The notes: generated from the sequence alone by a model not told the origin. A DNA stretch of 64,000 bases from an uncultured Candidatus Saccharibacteria bacterium (GCA_963749175.1 CAVVLM010000006.1:15558-79557), one strand, 5' to 3'; counted from the first letter of the stretch, positions 17,236 to 58,533 are shown. Program-made: numbers and translations.

Positions 17236-17316
17236 TCAAATGTCAGCTCACTCTGGGTTCTCATCACCACAGATATATTTTTACAACTAAACATATATGC
17301 ATAATGATGAGAGAAG

Positions 17317-17380: not shown

Positions 17381-17480
17381 ACACTCAAACCCTTACCCCT
17401 GGTATTCCCAGAGGATTCTAACTGAATTTTATGGCTTCAGATTGCCGCGTATGTTTCGGTGAATTATTTAGGAGGTTTTC

Positions 17481-17870
17481 CTAGGATTGTCCCAAAATTA
17501 CGAACATCTTTCCGGAAATTCCGTTTGGCTGTTCATAGGGGACCCATTGGAACACCACGTGCTCACCTGGTTGAAGCGAGGCTCGGCCGGTAGTGTAGAC
17601 TGGATCGGAAGTACAAGGGGCGGGACTAGACGGGAATGCGATGCACGCTTCCAGACCCTGGGCATCTACCTTGACGATAGTGCCGTTATAAGTCTGAGGT
17701 GTTGACGTTGAGTTGGCTGAAAAGAGCCAAGCACCAATGGCAAAACCTACCAAAAACGTACATGCAACATACAAAACAATCAAGTGAGTCGGGAAACCCC
17801 GTTTAGCTCTGCCGACTGCTCTGCCTGCTGTTCTGCTCCCTGATACTCGGGTGACATTTCTGGTTGCCAT
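17481..17870 (-). CDS. membrane-anchored protein (Arg-rich N-terminus, one TM helix)
   Basis: 129 aa; HLIVLYVACTFLVGFAIGAWLF helix. One nt separates it from the upstream ORF. Local GC is visibly higher than the flanks. Confidence 0.65.
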   Translation of the reverse strand: MATRNVTRVSGSRTAGRAVGRAKRGFPTHLIVLYVACTFLVGFAIGAWLFSANSTSTPQTYNGTIVKVDAQGLEACIAFPSSPAPCTSDPVYTTGRASLQPGEHVVFQWVPYEQPNGISGKMFVILGQS

Positions 17871-17871
17871 T

Positions 17872-18888: not shown

Positions 18889-19134
18889 TACTCCACACTC
18901 CTTAGGAGGGTACTCGGGATTCCGTCCTAACATGATGCTGAATTACAGTTTTACATAATTCACCTTTTGTTAAGGTACCATACTAATATTAGATAATCAT
19001 AAAATCAAGTAAATGTCAATAGTCATTTAACCTTAAACATGTTAAAAATATGTTAAATGACTAGACTGATTACAATAAGCATATAATTAAAAACTCTGAA
19101 AATCAGTGATGTAGCGTTTTAAATTAACAAATAG

Positions 19135-19578
19135 TTAATTTTCTCTCATTAACCAGTAATCATAATGACGGGTCGGTAGTTTGATGCGGACTATTAATAC
19201 CGGTGTTTCATAGCTGCCGCCAGTAATAGTGCCTTTAAGTACGCTATATGACAAGTCTGGCGTCTGTGCACTGAATTTACTACCCTTATTAATAGCTAGC
19301 GTTACAGTAGCCGTTTCAGCGGCTTCCGGCTGCCTAAATTCAGTGGCACCGATAAAGCCCCTACTAACCCCAGCATGATAGCGTAAACTTTGGTAATCAA
19401 ATAACTCTTCCAGCGGGGCACTGTAAGCTGCGACTTGAATATCATTTGTCCAACCAGCTGTACCAACAAAACCGTCAACAATCGGGAAACATTCTCCTGG
19501 TTGACAGTTCTCAACTAACTCTTGTAAAAACTCTGGATCCAGAGTTGGTTGTTGATTATAACTTTCTGGGCAAGACAT
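19135..19578 (-). CDS. hypothetical protein
   Basis: 147-aa ORF with ATG start. Confidence 0.65.
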   Translation of the reverse strand: MSCPESYNQQPTLDPEFLQELVENCQPGECFPIVDGFVGTAGWTNDIQVAAYSAPLEELFDYQSLRYHAGVSRGFIGATEFRQPEAAETATVTLAINKGSKFSAQTPDLSYSVLKGTITGGSYETPVLIVRIKLPTRHYDYWLMREN

Positions 19579-19804
19579 AACCCTTATATTTTAAACTCCT
19601 AAAATTCAATGGCAACCGTTTTCGGTAAACAAAATCAGATCGTATCGAGGAATTTTAATATATTAGTATAATACGCAAATAGCTAATGTAATATGCAAAC
19701 ATTTTCAGAGAGTCTAATCAGTAATAATATTTACTTATTTTATTTGCAATTTATTATACGATAGACCCTTATACTTAAAGCTTAAACGCTTTGGTGTAAG
19801 TAGT

Positions 19805-21262
19805 TTGACAACCGAGTTCTCCATTTCTCCAAAAACAAGGGGGGTTAAATTGATTAGTCTGTTGCAAGGGCTATGGCAGCACCGCGCCTCACGTTTTTTG
19901 GTGACTGCCGCAATCTGCACAGTAATCCAGGAAGCAATACTGTTTGGCCTGATCCACTGGCACCTTAACCGGGTGCTGGCTGATGGAATTGGCTTTGGGT
20001 TGGCAGCTCAGGCAAGCTTTGTCCTTAGCAGTAGCTTGACCTGGGGAGATCGTAAGTTAAACCAATCCAAAAGATCAATTACTACCCGCTGGCTGACGTT
20101 TAATTTTGTCGCCGGCATCGTGCTGCTAGTCAACGTCGGCGTTTTCGCCTTTGTTGTCCAGCACGATAAACCGTTTGTCCGCTTTTTCTCTAGTCTTTTC
20201 TCGGTTTTGCCTAAGCACGTTGACGCCGCTGTTTTAGTGGCTTCAATAGCCGGCATACTGATTGGAGCTGTTGTCTCATTCAACTTGAATAATTTGATCA
20301 CCTTCCGGCAAGCAAAGACTATCGAGGTGTCCTTAGCTACAGTAGAGCCTCTCAATACGCAAGCTATGTATGGCCTGGCCAAACAATTGGTCCAAGGCTT
20401 GTCGTTGGCGTATTTTATGCCGGCCTATAACGAAGGTGGCAATCTGCGCTATATGGTTGAAGATGCACTGGTATTTATCCGATCGCTTAAGTTTAGCGAA
20501 GCCAGAATCATTATCATAAATGATGGCTCATCGGATGATACAGCGGCTGTGGCTGACGAACTGGCTTTGCGCCATACAGAAGTTGTGGCCCATCACCGAA
20601 AGCACAATGGCGGCTATGGCCGGGCTTTAAAAACCGGTTTCAGAGCTGTCGTTGCCGCGCGGACCATTGCCGGACAGCCGTTCGACCTTTGGGCATTTTC
20701 CGATGCTGATCGACAGTTCCGGGTTGAAAGCTTGAGCTCACTGTTAGTGGCTCAAATTCAATCTAATGCCGATTTGGTAGTCGGTTATCGAATAGACCGC
20801 CAAATCAACGAATCCAGGTTTCGCTATTATTTGGGCCGTTTTTGGCACCTATATAGCCGAGCTGTGGTAGGACGTGATTTGTTGGTCGTTAGAGATGTTG
20901 ATTGCGGCATGAAACTAGGTTGCGTCAACTCTCTGGCCATTTTCGTTGAAAAGTTATTCGGTGAAAAAGCCGCTATTTCGCCCGAGCTGATTGCTCGCAG
21001 CAAGCTGGCTGGCCATATCATCGCTGAACAACCGGTAGAATATCTACCGCGAATCGCTGGTAAGTCCACCGGCAGTAACCCGAAAGTCATGTTGGTTTCC
21101 GGGTTTCATATAATACTAGTCGGCCTGGCGATACGAACCGAACGTCGCTTAGGTAGGACCTGGCAGTTTGCCAAGAATTTGGAACGTGACATCGTCCATG
21201 AAGTTGACATCGTCGAAGGCCTGATCCGCGGAGGTGAGGATATTGCTACTGAATCTACCTGA
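19805..21262 (+). CDS. GtrA-like membrane domain fused to family-2 glycosyltransferase (polyprenyl-phosphate sugar synthase type)
   Basis: N-terminus RFLVTAAICTVIQEAILFGL...SFVLSSSLTWGDRK is GtrA-like. The C-terminal domain FMPAYNEGGNL...INDGSSDDT...FSDADRQF is GT2 (DPM1/ArnC/GtrB-like). TTG start. Confidence 0.85.
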   Translation: MTTEFSISPKTRGVKLISLLQGLWQHRASRFLVTAAICTVIQEAILFGLIHWHLNRVLADGIGFGLAAQASFVLSSSLTWGDRKLNQSKRSITTRWLTFNFVAGIVLLVNVGVFAFVVQHDKPFVRFFSSLFSVLPKHVDAAVLVASIAGILIGAVVSFNLNNLITFRQAKTIEVSLATVEPLNTQAMYGLAKQLVQGLSLAYFMPAYNEGGNLRYMVEDALVFIRSLKFSEARIIIINDGSSDDTAAVADELALRHTEVVAHHRKHNGGYGRALKTGFRAVVAARTIAGQPFDLWAFSDADRQFRVESLSSLLVAQIQSNADLVVGYRIDRQINESRFRYYLGRFWHLYSRAVVGRDLLVVRDVDCGMKLGCVNSLAIFVEKLFGEKAAISPELIARSKLAGHIIAEQPVEYLPRIAGKSTGSNPKVMLVSGFHIILVGLAIRTERRLGRTWQFAKNLERDIVHEVDIVEGLIRGGEDIATEST

Positions 21263-22832
21263 ACGACAAGTTTTAGGGCGAGACCGGTCAAAACAAGCAA
21301 TCTGGATTAGCGCTTTCGTGCTGTCCGTGGTTGCCTTGACTATCGCCTACGCCCACAAGGCAATCCTGTTATACGGCGATACCATATCGCATTTGGAAAT
21401 TGCCCGCCGGACTGACTCGATGCTAGCCAGCTCACCGATTAATGCCCCTGGGCAGCTCGGTGCCGTTTGGCTACCATTGCCGCATCTGCTAATGATGCCG
21501 TTCATATGGGACAACACGCTGTATCAGGATGGCCTGGCAGGCAGTATTATATCGATGCTGGCTTTCGTTCTGGCAGTCGTGTTTACCTACGGCATTGTGG
21601 TGCAGTTGACTGGACAGCGTTGGCCTGGGATTGTGGCAGCAGCTATATTTGGCCTAAACGCCAATATGCTGTACATGCAAACAACCCCGATGACCGAATC
21701 GCTGCTGTTCTGCTTACTGGCAGCCATGACTTACTACACCCTGAAATGGGCGGATACAGATCGGACTAAGTACTTGGTATATGCCGCTTTTGCTGCCATG
21801 CTGGCTTCGTTGACCCGCTATGAAAGCTGGATCATCATCGCCTGTATGGCGGTAGCTGTTACCGGCATTGCCTGGACATCTCATAAGAGTATGTCCAAAA
21901 AACTGCATTGGTTTCGGGTAAGCGACCGTGTCCTGCTGGCTGGCCTTCTCGGTATCTCGGGAATTTTCTTCTGGCTAGTCTGGAACGTCGTTTTCTTCGG
22001 TAATCCGTTCTACTTCCAAGACGGTCTGTATGCCAAACCGGCGCTGTGGCTTAGCAGTCACGAACCGGCAATTGGCCACCTGGGGGTTGCTATAAAGACC
22101 TACTGGTTTGCCGTCAAGGACAATATCGGTTGGCCAATTCTGGTACTGGCGGGCTTAGGCTTAATCGCCTTTATCGTAGTCGAGTGGTGGCAGAAACGCG
22201 CCATCGCCAGAAGTCTACCAGTGTTGGCTCTACTGGTGATTTTCCCGTTTTTTGTTTATTCGATTTACAAGGGCGAACGACCCCTACATATCACGCCGTT
22301 AGAGCCCGACCTTTACAACGTTAGGTTCGGCCTAATCATGCTCCTGCCGACAGCAATTCTAGCTGGTTATCTGGTGGGAGTACTGCAAAAGCGCCGTATC
22401 CTGATGTATGCAGCCAGCGGTCTGGTGATAGTGGCGGCAATTGGCATATCAAGCGTCATGTTCCGTCAGCAACCAATCACCTATCGTGAAGCGCTCGGCA
22501 GTCAAAGCCCGATCGAAGCCCAAGTCGCCGCCGCTTTTGTCAAGAATTACACTGGCGGACGAATTTTGATGCAATCTTTCGGCAACGAAGGCATTGCCTT
22601 CAAAATACTAAACACCAACGACCTGATTTACGAAGGTAGTTATCAGCAATGGCAAACAGCCTTGCGCAGTCCATCGACGGACCACATTAGTTGGATTGTC
22701 GATCGCTGTGGGCCAAACGCCGACGCTGTCTGTACGCACGTCAACAAAGGTGAATTTGCCCGCTACAAACTTGTCTGGCGTTCGTCCAATGGTATCTACA
22801 GTATCTACAAGCTGAACTGGAGGCCAGCATGA
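21234..22832 (+). CDS. GT-C-fold membrane glycosyltransferase (ArnT/PMT-like, lipid-carrier dependent)
   Basis: About 12 TM helices with a soluble C-terminal domain. The start is uncertain (GTG 21234 overlaps the upstream gene by 29 nt). Confidence 0.7.
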   Translation: MRILLLNLPERQVLGRDRSKQAIWISAFVLSVVALTIAYAHKAILLYGDTISHLEIARRTDSMLASSPINAPGQLGAVWLPLPHLLMMPFIWDNTLYQDGLAGSIISMLAFVLAVVFTYGIVVQLTGQRWPGIVAAAIFGLNANMLYMQTTPMTESLLFCLLAAMTYYTLKWADTDRTKYLVYAAFAAMLASLTRYESWIIIACMAVAVTGIAWTSHKSMSKKLHWFRVSDRVLLAGLLGISGIFFWLVWNVVFFGNPFYFQDGLYAKPALWLSSHEPAIGHLGVAIKTYWFAVKDNIGWPILVLAGLGLIAFIVVEWWQKRAIARSLPVLALLVIFPFFVYSIYKGERPLHITPLEPDLYNVRFGLIMLLPTAILAGYLVGVLQKRRILMYAASGLVIVAAIGISSVMFRQQPITYREALGSQSPIEAQVAAAFVKNYTGGRILMQSFGNEGIAFKILNTNDLIYEGSYQQWQTALRSPSTDHISWIVDRCGPNADAVCTHVNKGEFARYKLVWRSSNGIYSIYKLNWRPA

Positions 22833-24526
22833 AAGTCGTAAAACACCGTCGTCGCAGTAAAATCGGCCGGATGTATGACGCCTTTGTCTACCCGAACCAA
22901 TCAGCCGCCGTTTTCCTGAGTCTGTGCCAGAAGATTCTTCTGCTGATGATTCTAGCGGGAGCGGTAGCGATTGTTAAGTATGACGGGTGGCAATTGCTGG
23001 CTAGAGTCGCCTTTGCCGTGATTGTGGCATTCTATGTCATTCTCGTGGGCTTTAAGGGGCTGCTCTGGTGGGCATCGCGGCGTCACCGCTACATTGACTA
23101 CAAGATGCCGGACATCAGCGACCCGAACCTACCGAGCTGCACCATCATGGTGACGCTCATGGGCGAGCAAGTGATTGTGTCGCAGCTAATCGAAGCGATC
23201 AAGCTGATTATTTACCCGCCGGAAAAGTTGGAAGTGATGATCGTCGTTGAAGACGAAAGAGTCGATCCGCACACTGCTCCGGCAGTCAAAAAGGTGCTTG
23301 ATAAGCGTAATGAACTGGGAATATTTAAGGTTCAGAGTGTGCCGCATGACCTGCAATTGCCGCAAAATAAGCCCCGAGCCCTGGTTTGGGGTCACATGCA
23401 CGCTAACCCGGACAGCGACATACTGGTAATTTATGACGCCGAGGATCATCCGGAGCCGAACCAGTTGCTGAAAGCGGTCGGTATGCTGAGAGCAGCTAAA
23501 GCCCAAGGTTTAAACGTTGGTTGCGTGCAAGCGCGACTAGCGTTCTGGAACCCGGGTGTCAGCTTCATCAGCAAGTGCTATGACGCGGAGTATTTCGTCC
23601 ACTTTAAGTGGATGCTGCCAGGACTGGCTCATCTGGGACTGGTACCGCCACTGGGTGGAACATCGAATATCTTCCGGCGTGAGACACTGGCCGCAATTGC
23701 AGCCAGCAATCCGGAATGGGCAGAAATACTGTATGAGGATGAGCTGATTGGCAACATTCAGTCAATTCCAGTACAGGGCGCCCATGATCCGTATAACATC
23801 ACCGAAGACGCCTCGATCGGGATGAGCTCATATAAAGTGGGTTACAGCATTGCGATGCTGGATTCAGTGACCTATGAGGAGTCCCAGATCAGCTGGCGCG
23901 GTGCCCGGCGACAAAGAAGCCGTTGGTTACAAGGATATATGCAAACCTTCTTCGTTCATACCAGACGGCCACTGCGGACTATCCACTCGATGGGCTGGTG
24001 GCGCGGTTTTGCTCAATATTTCAGTTTTAACCTGACGATGTTGGGTGCACCGTTGTCGTATCTGCTAAGTCCGATTGTCTGGGGCACGATGCTGCTGTAT
24101 ATCGGTTCCCGATTGAAGCACGCCCCGGCCATATCGAGCTACATCGAGCACTTGTTCCCGGCACCGGTGTACTTTCCAGGTATGCTGGTGTTTCTGATAG
24201 GTAATTTCGTGTTGCTGTATCAAATAATCCTGGCCCCTGTTATTCAGCAGGATGAAGCCGAAAAAGCTGCCAAGCCGGCATTCGCCGAAAATATCTTGGA
24301 ATCCAATCGCCAACAAGAAGAGTACGGGTTAGTTTTCCCACTGCTTTTCATACCGCTATTTTGGATGTTCACCAGCTCATCGGCTTACCGGGCGCTTAGG
24401 AAATTGCTAACTCCCTCGCTAAGGTCCCACTGGGATCTGACGAAGCATGGACATGCCCGTGAACAACTGGCAGAGCTGCAGCAACAAGCCGCTTTGTCAC
24501 TTGTGCGTGAAGAGGATATTGCTTGA
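22829..24526 (+). CDS. processive family-2 beta-glycosyltransferase (cellulose/chitin/PNAG-synthase-like)
   Basis: ATGA overlap with the upstream gene. Motifs YDAEDHPEPNQ, ITEDASIG (TED) and QRSRWLQG (QxxRW), flanked by TM helices. Confidence 0.85.
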   Translation: MKVVKHRRRSKIGRMYDAFVYPNQSAAVFLSLCQKILLLMILAGAVAIVKYDGWQLLARVAFAVIVAFYVILVGFKGLLWWASRRHRYIDYKMPDISDPNLPSCTIMVTLMGEQVIVSQLIEAIKLIIYPPEKLEVMIVVEDERVDPHTAPAVKKVLDKRNELGIFKVQSVPHDLQLPQNKPRALVWGHMHANPDSDILVIYDAEDHPEPNQLLKAVGMLRAAKAQGLNVGCVQARLAFWNPGVSFISKCYDAEYFVHFKWMLPGLAHLGLVPPLGGTSNIFRRETLAAIAASNPEWAEILYEDELIGNIQSIPVQGAHDPYNITEDASIGMSSYKVGYSIAMLDSVTYEESQISWRGARRQRSRWLQGYMQTFFVHTRRPLRTIHSMGWWRGFAQYFSFNLTMLGAPLSYLLSPIVWGTMLLYIGSRLKHAPAISSYIEHLFPAPVYFPGMLVFLIGNFVLLYQIILAPVIQQDEAEKAAKPAFAENILESNRQQEEYGLVFPLLFIPLFWMFTSSSAYRALRKLLTPSLRSHWDLTKHGHAREQLAELQQQAALSLVREEDIA

Positions 24527-24634
24527 CTCATGAAAAAAATGGAGAACGAACTCGAGCCGGACTACAAACAAGTCCTCCGCGATTATTCGCTCCCCATGTG
24601 TTGGGTTGAGCAGTAGTTTTGCGTAGAGGAAACG

Positions 24635-24712
24635 GGCAGTGTTTAGCTAACATAGCTAAGATAGTCGATTACGATCGATTATTCTTCCCTAGCGGAAGGC
24701 ACTGCCTTTTTT
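24635..24712 (+). terminator. multi-stem structure closed by GGCAGTG/CACTGCC and followed by T6
   Basis: Outer 7-bp stem (24635..24641 / 24700..24706). Inner hairpins TTAGCTA-ACA-TAGCTAA and CTTCC-CTAGC-GGAAG. TTTTTT at 24707..24712. Confidence 0.5.
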
Positions 24713-24774
24713 CACAACTAAAATATTATTTATTCGAAAATATCAGTATTAGTACCAATTACCCGGGCAATCGG

Positions 24775-25116
24775 CTACGGAACGTAGGGTTGACCATAAT
24801 ATCGACGGGCTTGTTTACGGATTCGGTTATCAATTTCAGCAGCTTTGCTAGTCTTCTCTGCTGGATCGGTGATATTGGCCGTTTCGAGTACAATTTGATG
24901 TTCGATAATGTGATTTAAGCTGTTACCTGAGCTCTGGTGGTATAACTCTTCAGCCTGGCTGATAATAGCCAACTGGATACCGGTAATAACGGCTTCAGCA
25001 AAGGCAGCTTTATCGCCTACATTGCTTAGGTCAAAGCCGGTAGGGCACTCCACAAGTTCTATATAAGTTTCGCGGATTTTAGGCGCCAACATTTCAGCCA
25101 TCCATTCGGCGGTCAA
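24775..25116 (-). CDS. hypothetical protein
   Basis: 113-aa ORF. Confidence 0.55.
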   Translation of the reverse strand: MTAEWMAEMLAPKIRETYIELVECPTGFDLSNVGDKAAFAEAVITGIQLAIISQAEELYHQSSGNSLNHIIEHQIVLETANITDPAEKTSKAAEIDNRIRKQARRYYGQPYVP

Positions 25117-25267
25117 TATTACCCCGATAATCCGGACCCAGAGAGCCTTCGCCTTGATCTAGGCGCATGCGCTGCAGCAGCTCAGTCGGTTTAATGTATT
25201 GGTCGTATTCTTAGCTTGCCATGAGTACCTATGGTTATAGATTTAAGTAAATAATTTTTCCAACTTT

Positions 25268-28200
25268 TTACGGTGAAGTCAGGCTGACATTATCCATAGT
25301 AGCGGTGCTTAATGCCCCAGCATTATGCGAACAGACAAACAAACCAATCGTAGCCGGCGAGCTTAAAGTCAACGTTGTTGAACCAACTGTAGTCCAAGTA
25401 TTTCCATTAGCTGACGAGTAAGCCGTAACAGTACCGCCAGTAATACTTAATCTAAGCCAGCCGTTGGGGAAAGTATAATTGCCACCGCCAACACTGCCAT
25501 TAAAGTTGTACTGGAAAGTTATGCCATTACCTGGCGTAACGGCCAGTAGTGCATACGGCGAACCAGCCGTAGTACTTTGTTTGATCATGATCCCGGCTTT
25601 AGCCCAAGCGCTAGTATTAGTCTGTGAGCTAACCCGGGCGGTAATCGTTTCGCTGCCGTTAACCAGTGGTTGCGAGACATAATTGAATTGATCTAAATTA
25701 CCGCCGCCAGTACCCCAAATATCATTACCGCCACCGTTAATAGTGAATACACCACTGCTGTAAGTGGCCGATCCGGCCGGTGTCGGATTGCCAACATCGG
25801 CATCAGTCCAGGGCGAAGGTAAACTAGCGCCAGCGGTAATGTTTACATTATCGATTGTGGCCGTACTTAGAGCCCCGGCGTTATGTGAGCAGACGAACAG
25901 TCCAATCGTGGCCGGGGCTGCTAAATTAAGGGTTGTGGCACCGATTTCATTCCAAATAGTACCATTGGTTGAGCTGTAAGCAGTAACCGTATTGCCAGAA
26001 AGACTTAGCTCCAGCCAAGCATTTGGAAATGTGTATGCGCCTCCACCAATACTGTTAGTAAAGTTAGACTGGAAAGTGATGCCATTACTTGGTGTAACCG
26101 CTAGCAGCGCGTACGGTGAGCCGGCTGTCGTACTTTGTTTGATCATAATGCCAGCTTTCGCCCAAGCACTTGAATTAGTCTGTGAGGTTACTCGGGCAAT
26201 AATATTCTCGTTACCGCTAAAGGGTTGTGAAACATAGTTAAACTGATCAAGATTGCCGCCGGGTGTACCCCAGATATCGTTGCCACCGCCATTGATGGTA
26301 AATACACCGCTGTTATAAGTGGCAGAGCCGGAAGGTGTAGGTGTGCCAACATCAGTATCAGTCCAGGGCGACGGCAGACCACTGCCGCTGCCACCACCAG
26401 TAACACTGACATTATCAATCGTGGCAGTACTTAGAGTGCCGGAGTTGTGGGCGGTTACGAATAAACCGATAGTGACCGCCCCAGAAATATCAATTGAGGT
26501 AGTGCCGATTGGTGTCCAAGTAGTACCGTTAGTAGAAGTAGAAGCAGTTATAACATTGCCAGCTCGGCTTAACTCCAGCCAAGCATTCGGAAAGGTATAA
26601 GCTCCACCACTAGTGCTATTAGTAAAATTTGACTGGAAAGTTATGCCATTACTGGGTGTTACCGCCAGCAGTGCGTAAGGCGCGTTAGCAGCATTACTTT
26701 GTTTGATCATAAGACCGGCTTTAGCCCAGGCACTAGTATTGGATTGTGCGGTAACTCTGCCGATAATGCTGCCATTGCCAGTTAGCGTTTGCCAGACATA
26801 GTGAGACTGGTCAAGGTTGAAATAAGGTGTACCCCAGATATCATTACCACCACCGCTGATGGTAAATACCCCACCACTATCGCTGGCCGAACCAGCAGGA
26901 GTCGGATTGCCAATATCACTGTCTAGCCATGGACTGGGTAGGTTCGGATTGGGTGTTACTAGTGAGTAATTAGCAAACGTAACGGTATTAGTTAAGAACT
27001 GGCTATGAGAAGTATCAGTTAACCCAGCTAAGGCGGTTGAGGGCAAAACTACGGTTATTGGAGTTCCTGGAAAAACGGTCCAAGTTACACCATCAGCAGA
27101 AGTATAGGCAGTAAAGTTATTGCCGGAGCGAACTACTTGGAGCCAGATCGGCGCTCCACTGCTGACACCAGTTAATTGTTGGGTGCTGCCACCTTCTGTA
27201 CTGCGATACTGGACAACAGTGCCATTGCCCGGGGTCGCCAGAATTGCAAAATAAGCTGCCGCTGGGTCAGCTGCACCATTAGTATTATCTCTTATCATAA
27301 TGCCAGCCTTAGCCCAAGGGTCGGTGTTTTGCTGGGAAGTAACTTCAGTTGTAATGGTTCCGTTTCCAGCCATAGTTTGGGCTTCATAGTGGAAGTCATC
27401 AGCAGGTCCATACAAGTCTTTGCCGCCGCCTAGTAGTGAATACACCCCGTCGACATAATACTGCGAGCCGGCTGGCAGCGTATTGCCGCCAATGTCTTCG
27501 CATATCCAGCTGGCCGGGCAAATGTTCGGCGCTGGCGGTGCTCCGGCTACCACCGACAGACTGTCAGCAGTTGTGGCATTAGGCGATCCATAGTTGGCTG
27601 AAGTTACAGCATAGCCAGCTGTTATTGCGCCGCTTAAGTTGCTAAGCGTCTGGCTAGAGCCAATTATCGGTCGCCAGTTATTGCCGTCGCTTGAAGTATA
27701 AGCCGTAAATGTATCGCCGGAGCGGACAATCTGTAAGTATTGTGGCAAACTGCCGCTGACACTGACCACGGAATTAGCCGGTAATCCGGCTTGAGTGCGC
27801 GACTCCACCATAATGCCGCCATTTTGCGGGACGGTAAAGGCGCCGTAATAGGCCGAATTCGGTGAGTTGCTGGCGCGCATCATTAATCCGGTCAGAGCCG
27901 AGCCTGAGGTGTTATTTTGACTGTCAATCCTAACTGTAGCCGTGGTGTCGCCAGTAATCGGTTGCGATAGGTAGTGGAACTGATCAGAAGTGCCTTCTAT
28001 CCCATTTCCCGTGCCGGTAATTGTCCAATTGTTGCCAGTTAATGTTTGATTGCCAACCAGTAGCGGATCGCCAATATCTTGGCAAGTCCAACTGCTAGGA
28101 CAAGCATTAGATGATGGCGTGTCTTGGGGAGTATTGCTTGGCGTTCCGATAACGACGTTAGATATAGTTGCCGTACCGGCTGTTGGGCCATTGGCCCCAG

Positions 28201-30127
28201 AAGCAACCGCTAAGCCAATCATTGAAGCATAGGGCATGATTACGGTTGCTGTAGACCCGGGTATTAGGGTGTAGTTCACGCCGTCAGTCGACGTGGCAGC
28301 GCTTAGTATATCGCCTATGTCCTGGATTTCTAGGTAAATTGGTGGATTGCCGGGATTGGAATCGGTTTGAACTGTGGTCTTGCCATTGGGCGTGTTACGA
28401 TACTGCACGTTTATGCCATTGGGCGTTACGAATACCCCATAATACGGCGAGCCTGGCAGATTATTTTGCCTAATCATTATTCCCGTTTGGGCGCTAGCCG
28501 ATATACCCTGCTGGGATACCACTTGAGCGCTAATTTGGGCATCGCCAGAAGTTGTCTGACTCATTAATCTAAATGAATCACTGGCTCCAGCAATACCGTT
28601 GCCACCGACTGATATATTCCAAGTGCCACTACTAACGGTTTCGGAACCGGAGGGTAGCGGATTGCCAATATCCTGGCAAGTCCAACCGGTTGGGCAATTA
28701 GGATCAGGCGGTGGAGTTAATGGTCCAGTTGTCGGCATCGCCCAGGCATAAATCGTGCCAAAGGTATTGCCAGTTACTATAGTCCCCTCACCAATTGAAG
28801 GCGCGGCAAAGATCCAACTACCCGGTCCGGTATCGTAACTATAAAGCCGTTGGCCATTTGTCGCGTTTAGTACCTCCAAAGCACTGCCGCCGCCATCGAT
28901 AATCATACCGTTCATATAAGTAATGGCGCCAATCACCGGTCCGGTTAAGGCATGTTGCCAGATAACGTTACCGTTATTAGGATTCCAAGCTTGAACCGAT
29001 CCGCTAACACCAACGCCGTTAATAGTTGTCAATCCTCCCGCCTGGTAAATCGTACCGTTGGCAAAGGCTGCACTGGATACCGTGCTGTAACCGCAAGCGG
29101 CACAATCATTACCCACCGCAATTTGCTGTTGCCAAACCGGTCCAGCGGCTAAGTTAGACCGTAAAAAGGCATAGGTATTGCCATTTTTATTAGAGGCCAT
29201 CACGAGCTGACGGCCATTGCTGTCGCTAAACAACGTGGCTGAAGTCGTCCAGTCGGAATCGGCTACCACGTCGGCTTCCGGCAAGTGCCAGTAATCGACT
29301 ACTTGCATGGTATCAGGATCAATCGCCACAATTGCCTGGGCAAAGGTTTGAGTATCGGATTGCTCAGTGCCGGTTACGGCAAAAATCCGGTTAGTTGTCG
29401 GGTCATACGACGGCGATGTCCAGATGCCGCCGCCAACCTGGCCGTTAGGAACCATATTAAGCGTCGATACCACTGCGCCAGTACTAATATTTACTTTAAT
29501 CAGTTGGCCTTGGACTAACGGACAGTCACCCAAGCTGGCTACCCCGATATAGGCGTAGCCATTAAATATGAGCGGGCTGGACCAGTTATAATGTCCGCCA
29601 GCCGCACTGCTATCGCCGGTATATACGTCCCATAACACAGCCCCAGTAGTGGCATTTAGGGCGTACCAATAATTAGCTCCGCCACCGACATAAACCACTC
29701 CATTTAAAACTGTCGGTGCTGAGGATACACCGGCACTTTGCGGATTACAGTCTGATTCGCCAGTAGTGGTACCTAAATTATCACTCCAGAGAACTGCTCC
29801 AGTTTTCAGGTTAAAGGCGTATTCATTACCGTTCCAGGATCCAACATAAGCCACGCCGTTAACGATTGCCGGCTGCGAAGCAATTGGTGCGCCGGTTGCA
29901 TATGACCATTGCTCAACTAACTGGGAAACATTACTGGTTGAAAATGAGGTATCAGTGCTGGCGCCGGTACGGGAATTGTCGTGTAGCGAAGTTGTCCACT
30001 CGTCGGTCGTCGCTGACGCGTAGGCAGGTACCAGCACTATACTCAGGCCGAATAATACTAAAATTGATATTAATAATTTGGCTTTTAAACCATGCCCTAC
30101 CCATGAGCGAATCCTGCTTAAATACAT
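25268..30127 (-). CDS. giant secreted protein: signal peptide, PQQ-like beta-propeller, six tandem ConA-like/DUF1349-like lectin-type domains
   Basis: 1619 aa. Signal/anchor LLISILVLFGLSIVLVPAYASA. Propeller repeats (VYVGSWNGNEYAFNLKTGAVLW type). Six units of about 190 aa with the motif ...GGGNDIWG...DQFNYV...AWAKAGIMI.... Confidence 0.9.
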   Translation of the reverse strand: MYLSRIRSWVGHGLKAKLLISILVLFGLSIVLVPAYASATTDEWTTSLHDNSRTGASTDTSFSTSNVSQLVEQWSYATGAPIASQPAIVNGVAYVGSWNGNEYAFNLKTGAVLWSDNLGTTTGESDCNPQSAGVSSAPTVLNGVVYVGGGANYWYALNATTGAVLWDVYTGDSSAAGGHYNWSSPLIFNGYAYIGVASLGDCPLVQGQLIKVNISTGAVVSTLNMVPNGQVGGGIWTSPSYDPTTNRIFAVTGTEQSDTQTFAQAIVAIDPDTMQVVDYWHLPEADVVADSDWTTSATLFSDSNGRQLVMASNKNGNTYAFLRSNLAAGPVWQQQIAVGNDCAACGYSTVSSAAFANGTIYQAGGLTTINGVGVSGSVQAWNPNNGNVIWQHALTGPVIGAITYMNGMIIDGGGSALEVLNATNGQRLYSYDTGPGSWIFAAPSIGEGTIVTGNTFGTIYAWAMPTTGPLTPPPDPNCPTGWTCQDIGNPLPSGSETVSSGTWNISVGGNGIAGASDSFRLMSQTTSGDAQISAQVVSQQGISASAQTGIMIRQNNLPGSPYYGVFVTPNGINVQYRNTPNGKTTVQTDSNPGNPPIYLEIQDIGDILSAATSTDGVNYTLIPGSTATVIMPYASMIGLAVASGANGPTAGTATISNVVIGTPSNTPQDTPSSNACPSSWTCQDIGDPLLVGNQTLTGNNWTITGTGNGIEGTSDQFHYLSQPITGDTTATVRIDSQNNTSGSALTGLMMRASNSPNSAYYGAFTVPQNGGIMVESRTQAGLPANSVVSVSGSLPQYLQIVRSGDTFTAYTSSDGNNWRPIIGSSQTLSNLSGAITAGYAVTSANYGSPNATTADSLSVVAGAPPAPNICPASWICEDIGGNTLPAGSQYYVDGVYSLLGGGKDLYGPADDFHYEAQTMAGNGTITTEVTSQQNTDPWAKAGIMIRDNTNGAADPAAAYFAILATPGNGTVVQYRSTEGGSTQQLTGVSSGAPIWLQVVRSGNNFTAYTSADGVTWTVFPGTPITVVLPSTALAGLTDTSHSQFLTNTVTFANYSLVTPNPNLPSPWLDSDIGNPTPAGSASDSGGVFTISGGGNDIWGTPYFNLDQSHYVWQTLTGNGSIIGRVTAQSNTSAWAKAGLMIKQSNAANAPYALLAVTPSNGITFQSNFTNSTSGGAYTFPNAWLELSRAGNVITASTSTNGTTWTPIGTTSIDISGAVTIGLFVTAHNSGTLSTATIDNVSVTGGGSGSGLPSPWTDTDVGTPTPSGSATYNSGVFTINGGGNDIWGTPGGNLDQFNYVSQPFSGNENIIARVTSQTNSSAWAKAGIMIKQSTTAGSPYALLAVTPSNGITFQSNFTNSIGGGAYTFPNAWLELSLSGNTVTAYSSTNGTIWNEIGATTLNLAAPATIGLFVCSHNAGALSTATIDNVNITAGASLPSPWTDADVGNPTPAGSATYSSGVFTINGGGNDIWGTGGGNLDQFNYVSQPLVNGSETITARVSSQTNTSAWAKAGIMIKQSTTAGSPYALLAVTPGNGITFQYNFNGSVGGGNYTFPNGWLRLSITGGTVTAYSSANGNTWTTVGSTTLTLSSPATIGLFVCSHNAGALSTATMDNVSLTSP
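25271..28699 (-). repeat. six tandem ~550-575-bp coding repeats inside the giant gene
   Basis: Protein repeats R1-R6 start at aa 477. R4-R6 (25271..26941) are highly similar (LPSPW(T/L)D.D(V/I)G.PTP.GSA...), R1-R3 more diverged. Confidence 0.85.
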
Positions 30128-30378
30128 AATCCCCTTGTGCTAAATTCTTCCTCCACTCTCTATAAACCTTGACAATGGCTGTAGATTATAAGCAATAAGG
30201 AACAAATTATAAGTTAGATAGCTTACAGACTAAGCATTATCGGAATAATGAAGTAGTTATCTTTAAGAAACTAATAAAACCACTCGACAAAACGTAAACA
30301 GCTTATCGGGCATGTTGTATAATGTATAGCAATTGCAAACTTCAAAAACATCTATAAAAGAACAGGATTTGTTTTGCT

Positions 30379-32107: not shown

Positions 32108-32181
32108 ATGCCTATTGTACTCCCGTTCAGTTTATTGATGATTGTAAGTTGTACATATCATTTGGCTAAGGTTGAGGGATT

Positions 32182-32721
32182 CTATTCCAAACTCTTTACA
32201 AGGACATGAGCTGTGTCGCTGACAGGCTCATCCGAGTATGTTCCATCTGGATTACGTTTGAATACTTCGCCTTGAATAGAATCAACGTAAGAATAACCGA
32301 GGTCTTCTTTGTAGAGTCGTATGGCGCGGACATTATCCAGGCTAACCTGTAAAAAAACACTTGTAAATCCGCGTCTGGCAGCTTCAATATGCAGTTTTTC
32401 AATTAGTAGTCTGCCGATTCCCTGGCTACGGAACTGTTTACGTACTTCGACAAATGCGATGTTTGGCATATACCCTTCAGGTTTTAGCAGACCCTCGCTT
32501 TCAAGCATGCTACGGACAAGAGGGTTCCGAGGAGCAACCCAATTAATTCCTGCCTGCCCACGAGATTGATCGCCAACTTGAGCGACCAAAAAGTCGATCT
32601 GGCCGCTGGTTATTTCATTTGGTAAGTTTTCTGCAATATCAGGGTGCACATCAACCATACCGCATTCAAGATCATTCGCAATCGATTCGGCAGTTACGTA
32701 TCTTAACGAAAGCTCATTCAT
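32182..32721 (-). CDS. GNAT-family N-acetyltransferase
   Basis: VRKQFRSQGIGRLLIEKL (motif A), 179 aa. TAGAAT -10 box lies 6 nt from the ATG. Confidence 0.85.
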   Translation of the reverse strand: MNELSLRYVTAESIANDLECGMVDVHPDIAENLPNEITSGQIDFLVAQVGDQSRGQAGINWVAPRNPLVRSMLESEGLLKPEGYMPNIAFVEVRKQFRSQGIGRLLIEKLHIEAARRGFTSVFLQVSLDNVRAIRLYKEDLGYSYVDSIQGEVFKRNPDGTYSDEPVSDTAHVLVKSLE

Positions 32722-32802
32722 AAATATATTCTACCATATAATCAACTATAAGTCTAGTTTTAAATAGCTTTATCGTTGGCAGAATCGTATGAATTTATTC
32801 TT

Positions 32803-32826
32803 TGGCTGGGGTGAAAGGATTCGAAC
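32803..32826 (-). other. tRNA-Gln-like 3'-end fragment (T-loop to CCA)
   Basis: Minus strand GTTCGAATCCTTTCACCCCAGCCA. No T-stem 5' strand or acceptor 5' strand upstream, so not a tRNA gene. Confidence 0.6.
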
Positions 32827-32872
32827 TATAACAATATAATTGTTGAAAAATGTTAAATAATATTGTTATACT
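32827..32872 (+). promoter_or_regulatory. promoter with 10-bp inverted repeat (putative antitoxin operator); leaderless-type spacing
   Basis: TTGAAA (32843..32848)-18 nt-TATACT (32867..32872), 6 nt before ATG 32879. TATAACAATA (32827..32836) is the inverted repeat of TATTGTTATA (32861..32870). Confidence 0.5.
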
Positions 32873-32878
32873 TTCTAT

Positions 32879-33094
32879 ATGACAACACTTAGTATTTCAT
32901 TGGATGATAAGTTAAAGAAAGAAATAGAACGTTTCTCTAAAGAAGACGGCGTTTCTAAGAGTGTAGTGGTACGTAGATTACTTCAACGAGCTTCATGGGA
33001 ACGGACTTGGAATAACATGTCTGCCCAGTTACGCATTAAGCTAGACGAACTGAATCTTAGCTCCGCGGATGATGTAGAAAAATATCTGGGATGA
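32879..33094 (+). CDS. ribbon-helix-helix (CopG-like) antitoxin
   Basis: 71 aa; N-terminal TLSISLDDKLKKEIERFSKEDGVSKSVVVRRLL is RHH-like. ATGA overlap with the PIN gene. Confidence 0.8.
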   Translation: MTTLSISLDDKLKKEIERFSKEDGVSKSVVVRRLLQRASWERTWNNMSAQLRIKLDELNLSSADDVEKYLG

Positions 33095-33522
33095 AACCTC
33101 TTCGAGTTGTATTAGATACTAATATCTATATTGCGGCAGCTCTAAACCCCCAAAGCATACTTTATAACTTAGTTGAGGATTCAGCTGCACATTATCTAGC
33201 TGAATACTATACATCACACGAAATTCTCGCTGAATTACAAAGCAAACTAGAGAATCGATTTAAATTCGATAGAGCCGATGTAGTTCGCTGGATAAATCAA
33301 TTAGAACAAGTTATTAAAGTAGTACGCCCCCAATTAAAATTAAATGTTATAGAACGAGATCCTGACGATAACAAGGTATTAGAGTGTGCACTTGAGGCCA
33401 AAGTTGATCTCATAATTACTGCTGACAAGGATTTATTGGTTCTAAAAGAAATTAATGGTATAAAAATAATACATACAAACTCTATAAAATTTATATTTCC
33501 TCAACTCAAAAAACCCAGATAA
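33091..33522 (+). CDS. PIN-domain toxin (VapC-like)
   Basis: VVLDTNIYIAA near the N-terminus, ECALEAKVDLIITADKDLL near the C-terminus. 143 aa. Confidence 0.85.
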   Translation: MKPLRVVLDTNIYIAAALNPQSILYNLVEDSAAHYLAEYYTSHEILAELQSKLENRFKFDRADVVRWINQLEQVIKVVRPQLKLNVIERDPDDNKVLECALEAKVDLIITADKDLLVLKEINGIKIIHTNSIKFIFPQLKKPR

Positions 33523-33537
33523 TTAATTCATACATCT

Positions 33538-33561
33538 GGCTGGAGTGACAGGATTTGAACT
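33538..33561 (-). other. tRNA-Gln-like 3'-end fragment
   Basis: Minus strand GTTCAAATCCTGTCACTCCAGCCA, between the convergent PIN and Doc genes. Confidence 0.6.
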
Positions 33562-33573
33562 TCTAACCTAAAC

Positions 33574-33960
33574 TTAGTTTACTTCTACAATATGCTTTTT
33601 TAACCACTCAACAATTTGTGGAATATCGAGGTGTTTTGTAGCTATTTCCACAGTAAAGTTTTCAATTTCTCCAGTTTTGGCTGTGAAATTAATTCCGTTT
33701 AATTCTAAATAGACTAAACCAACAAGTATAGCAGTTCTTTTATTGCCATCAACAAACGGATGGTCAGCAATGATACCCCTTATCATAGCCGCTACTTTTA
33801 CAACTATCCCCGGATATAATTCTTCGTCAAAAACATTTTGGGTTTGTGTTGCAATTGCAGCTTCCAGTCTGCCGAGATCACGTAATCCAATATCGCCACC
33901 AGTCGCTTCGATTACTAGAGCATGTAGTTCAAGCAACTGCTCAAGAGTTAGATTTATCAT
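33574..33960 (-). CDS. doc: Fic/Doc-family toxin (death-on-curing type)
   Basis: HPFVDGNKRTA Fic motif in a 128-aa protein. ATGA overlap with the upstream antitoxin. Confidence 0.9.
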   Translation of the reverse strand: MINLTLEQLLELHALVIEATGGDIGLRDLGRLEAAIATQTQNVFDEELYPGIVVKVAAMIRGIIADHPFVDGNKRTAILVGLVYLELNGINFTAKTGEIENFTVEIATKHLDIPQIVEWLKKHIVEVN

Positions 33961-34175
33961 CTCGATGCTAAGTTATCAAAATCTTTCTTATATTTGTTAA
34001 TTATTTTTTTTGCAGAATCTATAACCCTTTGGTCACTACTTTTTTTGCGTAGAGGGCGAACAATTACTTCAACTTCATCGCCAAAAGCTATCTTTTGACG
34101 TTTTAGCTCTTTGGCTGGTATGGTTACACCACCGCTTGTACCTATTTTAATAATCTTTTGAATGCTTTGAATCAT
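33957..34175 (-). CDS. AbrB/MazE/SpoVT-type antitoxin (Phd-like partner of Doc)
   Basis: 72 aa; IIKIGTSGGVTIPAKELKRQKIAFGDEVEV is the swapped-hairpin AbrB-type fold signature. Confidence 0.8.
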   Translation of the reverse strand: MIQSIQKIIKIGTSGGVTIPAKELKRQKIAFGDEVEVIVRPLRKKSSDQRVIDSAKKIINKYKKDFDNLASR

Positions 34176-34182
34176 ACTAATT

Positions 34183-34212
34183 ATTATAATGTTATTGTAA
34201 TGATCATGTCAA
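34183..34212 (-). promoter_or_regulatory. consensus sigma70 promoter, leaderless-type
   Basis: Minus strand TTGACA (34212..34207)-18 nt-TATAAT (34188..34183), only 7 nt before ATG 34175 and with no RBS. Confidence 0.55.
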
Positions 34213-34238
34213 TAACTTATCTATGCTTACTGGGAATA

Positions 34239-34262
34239 TGGCTGAGGCGGTAGGATTCAAAC
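34239..34262 (-). other. tRNA-Gln-like 3'-end fragment
   Basis: Minus strand GTTTGAATCCTACCGCCTCAGCCA, 39 nt 3' of the cfa stop. Confidence 0.55.
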
Positions 34263-34300
34263 ATTGATTATTATTGAGTAAATATTTAAAGGTATAAAAG

Positions 34301-35413
34301 CTAACGGGCGGCTATATAAGTTTTCGATGGTGTAACTTTACGCATAACTAATTGGTAAAGTTGGATATGTCTAGCTCTAAACGCACCGGCACAAATGAGC
34401 AAGTAAAATTTCCACATCCGGTAAAAACGTTCATCATAAACGTCTTTGATTTCGTTATAGTGGGCATTAAAATTTTTATACCAAGCCAGCAGAGTTTTAT
34501 CATAATCCGGCCCTATATTTTGAACATCTTCAATGATCAAACGGTTTTCGACCGCATCGCTGATTTGAGACAATGCCGGTAAAACTCCACCTGGGAAAAT
34601 ATACTTACTGATCCAGGGGTCAATAAACTTACTAGGACTATTAGCTGAGATGGTGTGATGGAGCATGATGCCATCGTTGCTCAGCAGCCTATTACATATA
34701 TCAAAAAAATTCTTATAATTTTTTGATCCAACATGCTCTAACATACCGATTGAAGTAATTCGATCGTATTTACCGCTGATTTGACGGTAATCTTTCTGAA
34801 GAATATTTACTGTCAGTCCTTTTGTATTGGCTTTAGCTAGCTCAACCTGCTCGGAAGCTGGTGTTATACCAGTCACATGAACGCCATACTTGGTAGCGGC
34901 AAACTTAGCAAAACCTCCCCAGCCGCAACCGATATCAAGTAACTTCATGCCTCGTTTAAGCTCCAGTTTTTGGCAAATGAGATCCAGCTTATTTTCTTGA
35001 GCCTGATCAAGATTTTTAGCACCCTTCCAGTAGGCGCAGCTGTATATCATACGAGCCCCAAGCATTCTTTGATACAAATCGTTGCCAATATTATAATGAT
35101 GTTCTGCATTCTGACGAGCGCCTTTAATAGTCTGGGTCTTAAACTGTGATGGGATGGCAGCTAGAAGCAACATCGGACTAACTTTAACTTGTTTGCGAAT
35201 ATCTATACTTAGTAATCTTTCAATTAACTGATCGATACTCTTACAATTCCACCAGCCGTCCATGTATGACTCGCCTAGACCAAGCTCTCGGTAGCGCAAT
35301 ACTTTGCTATAGAAACGATTATCTAGAACATCAATATCTTGAGGCTTTGAACCTCCAACATCAATGCCCGCAACTTTCAGTAATTCCTTGACTCGTTTCT
35401 CCGTAGAGTTCAT
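34301..35413 (-). CDS. cfa: cyclopropane-fatty-acyl-phospholipid synthase
   Basis: HYNIGNDLYQRMLG..MIYSCAYW, LLDIGCGWGGFAKFAA (SAM motif I), TSIGMLEHVG. The ORF track starts at 35485; ATG 35413 (MNSTEKRV) gives 370 aa. Confidence 0.9.
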   Translation of the reverse strand: MNSTEKRVKELLKVAGIDVGGSKPQDIDVLDNRFYSKVLRYRELGLGESYMDGWWNCKSIDQLIERLLSIDIRKQVKVSPMLLLAAIPSQFKTQTIKGARQNAEHHYNIGNDLYQRMLGARMIYSCAYWKGAKNLDQAQENKLDLICQKLELKRGMKLLDIGCGWGGFAKFAATKYGVHVTGITPASEQVELAKANTKGLTVNILQKDYRQISGKYDRITSIGMLEHVGSKNYKNFFDICNRLLSNDGIMLHHTISANSPSKFIDPWISKYIFPGGVLPALSQISDAVENRLIIEDVQNIGPDYDKTLLAWYKNFNAHYNEIKDVYDERFYRMWKFYLLICAGAFRARHIQLYQLVMRKVTPSKTYIAAR

Positions 35414-35465
35414 TAAATAAAGTATATCAAAAAGATTTACTTCTCGATGGAATAATGGGATTTGT

Positions 35466-35750
35466 TTAATAGAAAAATTTAGCAATTACTATAATAAGCA
35501 CTATTAACCCAAGAGCTTTTCGAAATTTGTTTAATCCCGTTGTTAACTCCATAAAAGCCCAAACAAAAATAAAAGCAGTACTTAATTGTCGACTGCCGTT
35601 TTTATAATTACCCACGGGTAGTATTAATGCTAGAATCTCAAAAATAATCCAACCACTCAGGGCAATATTGGGCTTTTGCCAAATTACAATTCGGCCACTT
35701 TTATCTTTGCAGAAATAACCAACAGGATCTTTCTTAATATTAGATAACAC
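35466..35750 (-). CDS. small membrane protein
   Basis: 94 aa, GTG start, three hydrophobic helices. Confidence 0.55.
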   Translation of the reverse strand: MLSNIKKDPVGYFCKDKSGRIVIWQKPNIALSGWIIFEILALILPVGNYKNGSRQLSTAFIFVWAFMELTTGLNKFRKALGLIVLIIVIAKFFY

Positions 35751-35820
35751 ATATTAAGCATACGCTTAGATAACTATTATCTGAAATGAAGAGTAAATTC
35801 ATATAAGACTTCATTGCATT

Positions 35821-35843
35821 TGGCTGGAGCGGAGGGATTCGAA
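35821..35843 (-). other. tRNA-Gln-like 3'-end fragment
   Basis: Minus strand TTCGAATCCCTCCGCTCCAGCCA, 19 nt 3' of hammerhead 35863..35916. Confidence 0.55.
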
Positions 35844-35862
35844 ATTAATATAAGCCTTAACT

Positions 35863-58508: not shown

Positions 58509-58533
58509 TGGCAGGGGTTGTGGGATTCGAACC
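58509..58533 (-). other. tRNA-Trp-like 3'-end fragment (T-stem G, T-loop to CCA)
   Basis: Minus strand GGTTCGAATCCCACAACCCCTGCCA. No remaining tRNA body. Confidence 0.55.

Follow-up and report, generated by a model that had tools for sequence, protein, structure and literature searches.

Why does the 3′ end of a tRNA-Gln recur, in one orientation and without the rest of the tRNA, between small gene units of a bacterial chromosome? The question is raised by a stretch of 64,000 nucleotides from an uncultured Candidatus Saccharibacteria bacterium (GCA_963749175.1, CAVVLM010000006.1:15558-79557), referred to here as the window, in which short tRNA-Gln-like fragments bound a VapBC-like and a Phd/Doc-like toxin–antitoxin pair, a cfa unit and an acetyltransferase gene. 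Saccharibacteria and other Patescibacteria have genomes of about 1 Mb with few recognised mobile elements, and the exchange of accessory and defence genes among them is little known. The presented results make it likely that the array arose as small units were inserted one after another, by site-specific recombination, at the 3′ end of tRNA-Gln. This reading is supported because related loci show an intact tRNA-Gln at the head of the array, boundaries that lie at the fragments, and a polymorphic content of units.

Five fragments of the Gln type are present, all direct repeats of the 3′ part of the tRNA on the minus strand: f0 (AATAGAATCCCTCAACCTTAGCCA, 32163..32186), f1 (GTTCGAATCCTTTCACCCCAGCCA, 32803..32826), f2 (GTTCAAATCCTGTCACTCCAGCCA, 33537..33560), f3 (GTTTGAATCCTACCGCCTCAGCCA, 34239..34262) and f4 (TTCGAATCCCTCCGCTCCAGCCA, 35821..35843). 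An earlier note, made from the sequence alone, had described f1-f4 as four minus-strand tRNA-Gln-like 3′ fragments. They were found again by pattern and, independently, by a repeat search that recovered them as one family. The coordinates given there hold for f1, f3 and f4, and those for f2 (33538-33561) are off by one base; the lengths of 736, 701 and 1582 bp given for the units between them compare with start-to-start distances of 734, 702 and 1582 bp, so that the third is correct and the first two differ by 1-2 bp. A degenerate pattern built from f1-f4 had exactly four matches in the window at 0 mismatches, against a chance expectation of 0.02. The decayed copy f0 was found by a loose pattern scan and is also a member of repeat family D2. 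A position weight matrix (PWM), trained on f0-f4 among other sequences and without f5, a further fragment discussed below, placed f0-f5, and no other site, above the highest shuffle score of 15.3 bits, with 24.5-35.6 bits (24.5 for f0 and 30.4 for f5) and each of the six on the minus strand; f1-f4 were thus recovered by pattern, PWM and repeat search alike. A generic tRNA-end matrix that contained no sequence of the window placed f1-f5 at 18.2-23.2 bits, with f0 below its 12-bit listing threshold. The fragment f2 lies 15 nt past the PIN stop codon, and f0 overlaps the stop codon of the GNAT gene, which sits within its T-loop remnant. Near three of the fragments a 12-mer, TATGAATTWAYT, was also observed. 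Its only exact matches in the window (32788-32799, plus; 33521-33532, minus; 35792-35803, minus) each lie no more than 30 nt from the CCA end of one fragment (f1, f2 or f4), its orientation to the site is inconstant, and one of the copies is a conserved VapBC trailer.

The identity of the fragments to the last 24 nt of the relatives' tRNA-Gln(UUG) is graded: 22/24 in f4, the nearest copy, 21/24 in f1, 20/24 in f3, 18/24 in f2 and 17/24 in f0. The differences, which are mostly transitions, number two in f4, four in f3, six in f2 and seven in f0, and this gradation would fit, as expected, copies that decay with age. The fragments f1 and f2 are identical at 21 of 24 positions and have three derived changes in common. 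In the acceptor 3′ strands of f1-f4 all differences are transitions, and it holds by inspection that, as had been pointed out, all four strands could pair with UGGGGUG if G-U wobble is allowed.

Read in the sense of the tRNA, the order of the array is f4 - cfa - f3 - Phd/Doc - f2 - VapBC - f1 - GNAT - f0. The cfa unit (34301..35750, minus) comprises the gene of a CFA synthase (34301-35413, counted from its ATG; Pfam CMAS, E 2e-87; 370 aa in the gene call on contig L001, see below) and a 94-aa membrane open reading frame (ORF) at 35466-35750. The Phd/Doc-like unit (33574..34212, minus) encodes a Doc/Fic toxin (33574-33960; Fic, E 1.4e-15) and an AbrB/MazE-type antitoxin (33957-34175; MazE_antitoxin, E 0.0026) behind a perfect promoter (34212 to 34183; TTGACA-18-TATAAT, 12/12). 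The VapBC-like unit (32879..33522, plus) consists of an RHH antitoxin (32879-33094; RHH_1, E 6.8e-06) and a PIN_3 toxin (33091-33522; E 5.4e-19). Its promoter region (32824..32873, plus) holds a 10/12 match, TTGAAA-18-TATACT, which overlaps an operator-like 18-nt inverted repeat (AACTATAACAATATAATT / AATAATATTGTTATACTT); a TAACAAT...ATTGTTA motif stands at or shortly past the fragment in six relatives as well (contigs L084, L087, L090, L097, L178 and L184). The GNAT acetyltransferase gene (32182..32721, minus; Acetyltransf_1, E 4.9e-11), in the 640 bp between f1 and f0, is counted as a fourth unit because f0 adds a bounding copy. The units lie in either orientation, and no intrinsic terminators were predicted in the array region. 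Their functions are accessory ones: two toxin–antitoxin pairs, an acetyltransferase and an enzyme that modifies lipids. Pfam agrees with the gene content reported earlier for the three units between f1 and f4. The accompanying statement that each has its own promoter is supported for the Phd/Doc and VapBC units and not clearly for the cfa unit, where the promoter scan gave nothing convincing.

The loci used for comparison are all metagenome contigs. About 75 homologues of the VapBC unit were found at 64-85% identity, named, where a name is given, as Saccharimonadales and Patescibacteria. The close relatives of the VapBC (82-85% at the amino acid level) and Phd/Doc (84%) units lie in arrays headed by an intact tRNA-Gln(UUG). 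In L084, L085 and L086, in which PIN is 85% identical, tRNA-Gln(ttg) heads a series made up of a 390-bp unit, in which a single ORF encodes 81 aa, an orphan fragment that agrees with the tRNA end at all 25 nt from G52 to the CCA, the VapBC unit and a decayed f1-like copy; this f1 orthologue flanks VapBC in L084 and L087. The sequence of L087, a strain nearly identical to L084, equals that of L084 until 9 nt into the fragment and continues with another fragment variant and a PLD-like/helix-turn-helix unit. In L186, the Phd/Doc unit stands directly behind tRNA-Gln(ttg) and ends at a decayed fragment right past the Doc stop codon. Its antitoxin differs from that of the window by 1 aa in the first 41 residues, and its Doc protein is 84% identical. 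The core flank of L084 and L186, with genes for DnaB, RecR, YbaB, DHH, CysRS and an AI-2E transporter, is 79% identical at the nucleotide level over 7.3 kb, and the identity stops 3 nt past the CCA. One tRNA-Gln locus carries different units by strain and species, and the unit boundaries are the fragments. The earlier note had favoured serial integration at the tRNA-Gln 3′ end, which the head tRNA of the relatives, the end of synteny and the divergence between strains now support; it had also named the comparison with relatives beforehand as the test that could refute this model, and in that comparison boundaries coincide with fragments and the content of units is polymorphic.

The association is specific for a lineage. 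A metagenome scan with PIN showed a fragment near the PIN gene only in two matches, both at 83% identity or more, and PIN_3 homologues at 47% identity or less had no fragment association; the link between fragment and PIN is therefore lineage-specific and not a general property of PIN genes. No PIN relatives were found in viral contigs. Named PIN and Doc homologues come from metagenome-assembled genomes (MAGs) of Saccharimonadales, Patescibacteria and Dormibacteraeota. The window itself has the look of an accessory region, because it contains almost no housekeeping genes and many ORFs without a family match. The flanking MFS transporter has its best matches, at 57-64% identity, in MAGs of Candidatus Saccharibacteria, and none of the loci fetched via its homologues contained the array. 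In those related loci that were gathered first, array proteins other than RHH and PIN had no homologues.

Under the proposed mechanism, the repeats would be copies of a recombination site that corresponds to the last 24 nt of tRNA-Gln(UUG), from the T-loop to the CCA, and each of them would be a junction produced by site-specific recombination of a small circular unit at the 3′ end of the tRNA gene. Newcomers would enter beside the tRNA, which would displace older units outward and leave their sites to decay. The outcome would be an array of alternating sites and units, with promoters of their own where these are visible. The source tRNA-Gln would end in ...CCCTCCGC(C/T)CCAGCCA and would lie outside the window; the source contig (89,047 bp) runs about 25 kb past it. 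Since the units carry no recombinase, the enzyme would have to act in trans, from elsewhere in the genome, from a phage or from a conjugative element. The toxin–antitoxin units would probably stabilise the array against loss.

Small units and short sites are found in other arrays as well. About 20 inter-site distances in five arrays (the window, L084, L097, L090 and L184) measure 0.36-1.6 kb and contain one or two genes each; L084 has one further gap of 6 kb with several genes, which may hide sites. The most regular case is L097 (GCA_035510465.1, DATKHC010000023.1; 8827-14159), where a 29-nt site (GTACGGAAYTCAACCTCGATTCCCAGCCA) occurs six times in nearly the same form, once lacking 4 nt. Between these copies and a few fragments of more canonical type lie nine units of one operon each: VbhA-Fic, VapBC, GNAT, histidine phosphatase, PemK-MazE and four of unknown function. 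The identity of these sites ends exactly at the CCA, and their T-loop, AACTCAA, is unusable in a tRNA. L090, also a Saccharibacteria contig, has a different 29-nt site (GTTTGAACTACCTTGACTACGCCGTACCA) with a T-loop-like start and a GTACCA end; it is present three or four times at 5983-8903, between ParE/YafQ, lycopene-cyclase and HicAB units. Toxin–antitoxin pairs and GNAT acetyltransferases make up most of the array cargo. The VapBC unit recurs with Gln-type flanks in the window, L084, L097 and L099. In L178 it comes immediately after tRNA-Arg(tct), and the copy beyond it ends in ACCA; in L184 it belongs to a tRNA-Met array, and both of its flanking copies are of the Met type. Its polarity relative to the sites is constant in all eight contexts, its boundaries are tight in at least six, and in three the site abuts the operator. 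On the other side, the site lies 8-50 nt past the PIN stop codon in eight of the nine contexts examined and 270 nt past it in L184.

Several observations weigh against serial insertion at a tRNA-Gln. ARAGORN found no tRNA gene in the 64 kb, whereas an intact tRNA-Gln stands at the array end in L084, L085, L086 and L186, and a search of the 80 nt upstream of f1-f5 for a remnant of the tRNA body gave alignments to a relative's tRNA-Gln no better than shuffles. These two results together mean that no tRNA body is attached to the fragments, just as had been stated before. A D-loop-like match beside f4 was considered as such a remnant and rejected, its alignment score being at shuffle level. The fragment f1, with only three differences from the tRNA, is an exception to the gradient of decay. 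No recombinase that could be attributed to the units was found. Moreover, the L097 array lies between core genes and tRNA-Pro(ggg), not tRNA-Gln, and because the T-loop of its sites is non-functional, these sites must have been copied from one another or carried by the units and are no displaced ends of a tRNA in use. For f2 and f3, too, the T-stem 3′ strands admit no common pairing partner. The view that all fragments are former 3′ ends of one working tRNA, which the earlier note had implied, is contradicted by both of these cases. Finally, VapBC is flanked by Gln-, Arg- or Met-type ends according to the genome, which a single sequence-specific attP would not predict; that the unit entered independently at different tRNAs is read from the type of its flanks and was not observed.

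The crossover point is a further difficulty of the same kind, as comparisons disagree and either end of the fragment is indicated: in some the fragment stays with its tRNA-distal unit, in others with its tRNA-proximal one. A junction on the CCA side is suggested by the f1-like copy kept with VapBC in L084 and by the start of L001 at the CCA of f1. This contig comes from the independent Logan assembly of another run, ERR11630400, in which two contigs cover the array at 99.9-100% (L001, 32803-35895; L002, 35866-37214); L001 starts exactly at 32803, which as evidence for a boundary is suggestive only. The overlap of 30 nt between L001 and L002 falls inside the core of a hammerhead candidate discussed below, and the contig ends point to branches of the assembly graph, which are possibly strain variants and may also have another origin. 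A junction on the T-loop side is suggested by f2-like copies that adjoin the PIN stop codon next to different neighbours in the window, L087, L098 and L099, and by the Phd/Doc unit when compared with L186. The two patterns would be compatible if any site could recombine with any other.

The other arrays open a wider possibility, namely that Saccharibacteria possess an integron-like capture of cassettes on tRNA ends, in which 24-29 nt mimics of a tRNA end serve as sites for a recombinase provided in trans. This possibility is at present more doubtful than serial insertion at a tRNA-Gln and is offered tentatively, and it gains support because the units are small and recombinase-free and because the repeats in relatives are homogeneous. 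The 3′ end of a tRNA gene would then be the entry site, and the recombinase would read features common to tRNA ends. In this way one cassette, VapBC, could enter behind tRNA-Gln, -Arg or -Met in a fixed polarity, and near-identical sites that are not tRNA-competent, as in L097, could accumulate.

The source of the recombinase was looked for in the arrays and in viruses. According to Pfam, neither PF00589 nor PF00239 occurs among the window ORFs or the genes within 10 kb of the relatives' arrays, and the earlier expectation that the integrase is now missing or lies elsewhere agrees with its absence from the window and the neighbourhood of arrays in about 490 kb of related loci. A 293-aa protein beside tRNA-Gln in L084 was considered as a recombinase and rejected, being alpha/beta-hydrolase-like. 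Among the hypothetical ORFs to the right of f4, PHROGs and PADLOC gave no integrase, the only matches being an IetA-like ATPase and a weak Cas4-like nuclease. Viral contigs were scanned for the relatives' tRNA-Gln end. Two of them, L312 and L313, of 37 and 41 kb, each encode one tyrosine integrase of 283-297 aa (L312, 5948-7014; L313, 2550-3559; PF00589, E 1e-28 to 6e-32) and, some 150 nt downstream of its gene, carry as an orphan copy 32 nt of just this tRNA-Gln end. The integrases share 53% identity and belong to a family whose close relatives number about 80, many of them encoded on contigs of 30-43 kb; among named cellular proteins, XerD-like ones of Patescibacteria come nearest. The two loci are probably int-attP modules of temperate phages of the Saccharibacteria lineage. 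With these two integrases as queries, tblastn gave no match in the window or in 492 kb of related loci. The identity block of the phage attP spans 32 nt and includes the 5′ T-stem strand, and the array sites of 24-25 nt start at the T-loop. Because the block is longer than the array sites, the phage integrase is a proof of principle and not an identified helper.

These modules would also suit an explanation by decay, in which each fragment is the attR of a full-size, integrase-bearing element that has since been trimmed to one operon. Tandem integration with partial tRNA copies, including decayed remnants in tRNA-anchored islands, is documented (10.1101/2020.12.28.424599), and a probable integrative mobilisable element (IME) or integrative and conjugative element (ICE) ends at f5, within the window itself. 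This course of events is nevertheless unlikely, since none of the roughly 20 units in five arrays exceeds 1.6 kb, and neither Pfam nor tblastn detected an integrase pseudogene in them. The boundaries of VapBC are alike in at least six contexts, which independent deletions would not reproduce, and the phage attP block differs in extent from the array sites. Duplication of the target could produce small units directly: staggered cuts around the region from T-loop to CCA would admit a unit without a site, and repair would duplicate 24-29 nt of target, as in casposon insertion or the duplication of CRISPR repeats. It would explain why both flanks of VapBC are always of the local site type (f1/f2 in the window, the 29-mers in L097, and L178), why the two Met-type flanks in L184 share a change absent from the tRNA, and why the six non-functional repeats of L097 all end at the CCA. 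We nevertheless regard it as quite improbable, because Pfam showed no Cas1, casposase or transposase in or near the arrays. The sole rve-family transposase belongs to an insertion sequence of L186 (9027-9920), which splits Doc and leaves the antitoxin intact. The units have no terminal inverted repeats, the single polarity of VapBC in eight contexts is a better fit to a polar att site, and L084 and L099 have the same two neighbouring units in common with differing sites between them.

The fragments could also be thought of as functional RNA elements, that is, as tRNA-like 3′ tags or as processing or termination signals in transcripts, the more so as f0, f2 and f3 follow closely on genes of the minus strand in a region where terminators were not predicted, and a hammerhead candidate is found 18 nt upstream of f4. 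Such a role is very improbable in view of the fact that, in all genomes, VapBC runs antisense to the fragments on either side of it. When each fragment was folded together with the 110 nt upstream, there was no acceptor partner strand for a minihelix or tRNA-like structure, and Rfam reported at the fragments neither a tRNA, even at E up to 10, nor any other family. Moreover, sites are identical to the end of the adjacent tRNA gene, and the content of units at the sites is polymorphic. Serial insertion of small units at the tRNA-Gln end is therefore retained as the preferred reading.

The hammerhead candidate beside f4, HH1 (35862..35917, minus; type III), lies upstream of that fragment in the tRNA sense. 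It is part of the unit on that side of f4 and no member of the fragment family. It matched Rfam RF00008 with 30.7 bits (E 0.0012), the gathering score being 48.5. Two further type III candidates on the minus strand, unannotated like HH1, are HH3 (about 38593-38645), which is 91% identical to HH1 over 47 nt, and HH2 (about 11341-11394), with stems of its own. All three have a complete core (CUGANGA ... GAAA), three stems and an NUH triplet, and all are below the Rfam gathering threshold (30.7 and 19.8 compared with 48.5 bits). Between HH1 and HH3, stems I and III show compensatory changes, and U7 is changed to C. Each candidate is located just 3′ of a minus-strand gene, in the 3′ untranslated region, and, judging from this position, they may act as 3′-end processing elements where terminators were not predicted. 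A viral contig, L083 (IMGVR_UViG_3300027816_000524; about 6560-6618, minus), contains a hammerhead with the stem II and loop of HH1 (GUCC-AAAA-GGAC), whose stems I and III covary relative to HH1 and which lies upstream of a small ORF; this copy suggests that phages share the ribozyme family. No link of hammerheads to Saccharibacteria or Patescibacteria was found in the searchable literature library. A T-loop-like string past HH2 was considered as a site and rejected, since it is inside the coding region of an ABC transporter and has no CCA.

Far to the right of the array lies f5 (GGTTCGAATCCCACAACCCCTGCCA, 58509..58533, minus), an orphan tRNA 3′-end fragment that has U72 instead of A72 and, to judge by its sequence, is a tRNA end of another or diverged identity, presumably Trp-like. 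To its right there follow an AT-rich stretch with inverted repeats, a 96-aa ORF, the gene of a type IV coupling protein (59365-61017, plus; T4SS-DNA_transf, E 2.4e-09) and that of a Replic_Relax protein (61014-61913, plus; E 1.7e-20). With f5 as its boundary, the region 58509-61913 probably represents the distal part of an integrative element, mobilisable or conjugative, that runs off the window. Between f4 and f5, an AAA+ ATPase (52450-54336, plus) matches the PADLOC IetA defence models (E 1e-31) and a PD-(D/E)XK nuclease (56947-57618, plus) has weak Cas4-like matches; with these two among its hypothetical genes, the stretch may be a defence island. The block at 17000-30200 differs in composition, with 47-53% G+C (and a kilobase of 38% at 19-20 kb) as against 33-47% elsewhere in the window. 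It contains a glycosyltransferase cluster and a 1619-aa ORF that has a signal-peptide-like N-terminus and several long internal repeats.

The arrays are a concrete route of accessory gene exchange, as tRNA-anchored stacks of minimal, promoter-bearing units (toxin–antitoxin pairs, acetyltransferases and small enzymes) whose content varies from one close strain to another. Should the units move one by one, through a recombinase acting in trans on mimics of a tRNA end, they would constitute a second system of cassette capture with an evolution separate from that of integrons, and such trans-mobilised cassettes would provide cultivable Saccharibacteria with a site where genetic tools can dock. On a conservative view, too, the sites allow strain-level gene flux to be mapped precisely in metagenomes, and they explain contig breaks here.

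Among the known systems, chromosomal integrons are alike in having long arrays of small cassettes, of one gene or operon each and without a recombinase, short species-typical repeats, variation between strains and a cargo dominated by toxin–antitoxin pairs and GNAT acetyltransferases. In contrast to them, the arrays described here have no adjacent intI and no attI/Pc platform, their sites are short (24-29 nt) and non-palindromic, unlike attC with its imperfect inverted repeats and R''/L''-L'/R' boxes, GTTCGAA does not fit the attC core GTTRRRY, and the units have promoters of their own, lie in both orientations and form an array anchored on a tRNA gene. The window array is therefore not an integron, given that it lacks intI and attC-type palindromes and that its units are self-promoted. 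In phage int-attP modules, the att sites in tRNA genes are said to fall into sublocation classes, reportedly distinguished by Williams in 2002, one of which is a T-loop class. With that class the array sites have their start at the T-loop in common, and the units are unlike such modules in having no integrase.

The general process, tandem integration at tRNA ends together with integrase-less, att-bounded elements, is already established. It is known from tandem integration at tRNA genes with partial copies in the tycheposon islands of Prochlorococcus (10.1101/2020.12.28.424599), from tandem site-specific integration at tmRNA genes in the ssrA islands of Dehalococcoides (PMC3146451) and from cis-mobilisable elements (CIMEs) and accretion at the att sites of ICEs and IMEs (PMC5704250). 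As in the tRNA and tmRNA islands, same-orientation copies of a tRNA 3′ part separate the insertions, newer insertions displace older ones from the tRNA, decayed partial tRNAs are scattered, and synteny breaks at the tRNA 3′ end. Those islands, however, measure several kb to tens of kb and have a tyrosine or serine recombinase of their own, whereas the units here are single operons of 0.36-1.6 kb with none. With CIMEs the arrays have in common the bounding att sites, the lack of integrase and transfer genes, the tandem position at a tRNA 3′ end and a mobility that would need the recombinase of another element. CIMEs are regarded as deletion derivatives of ICEs or IMEs, usually single or paired beside a resident element, whereas the arrays here consist of 4 to about 9 minimal units with no resident, and one unit family stands behind three different tRNAs; a Gln-type site was not seen on any ICE or IME, and the element bounded by f5 has a site of another type. 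The searchable library contained no description of tRNA-end cassette arrays in Saccharibacteria or Patescibacteria. Compared with the described tRNA islands, the arrays differ in their minimal, recombinase-free units, in a family of sites that can be homogeneous and yet tRNA-incompetent, as in L097, and in the occurrence of one unit, VapBC, behind several types of tRNA.

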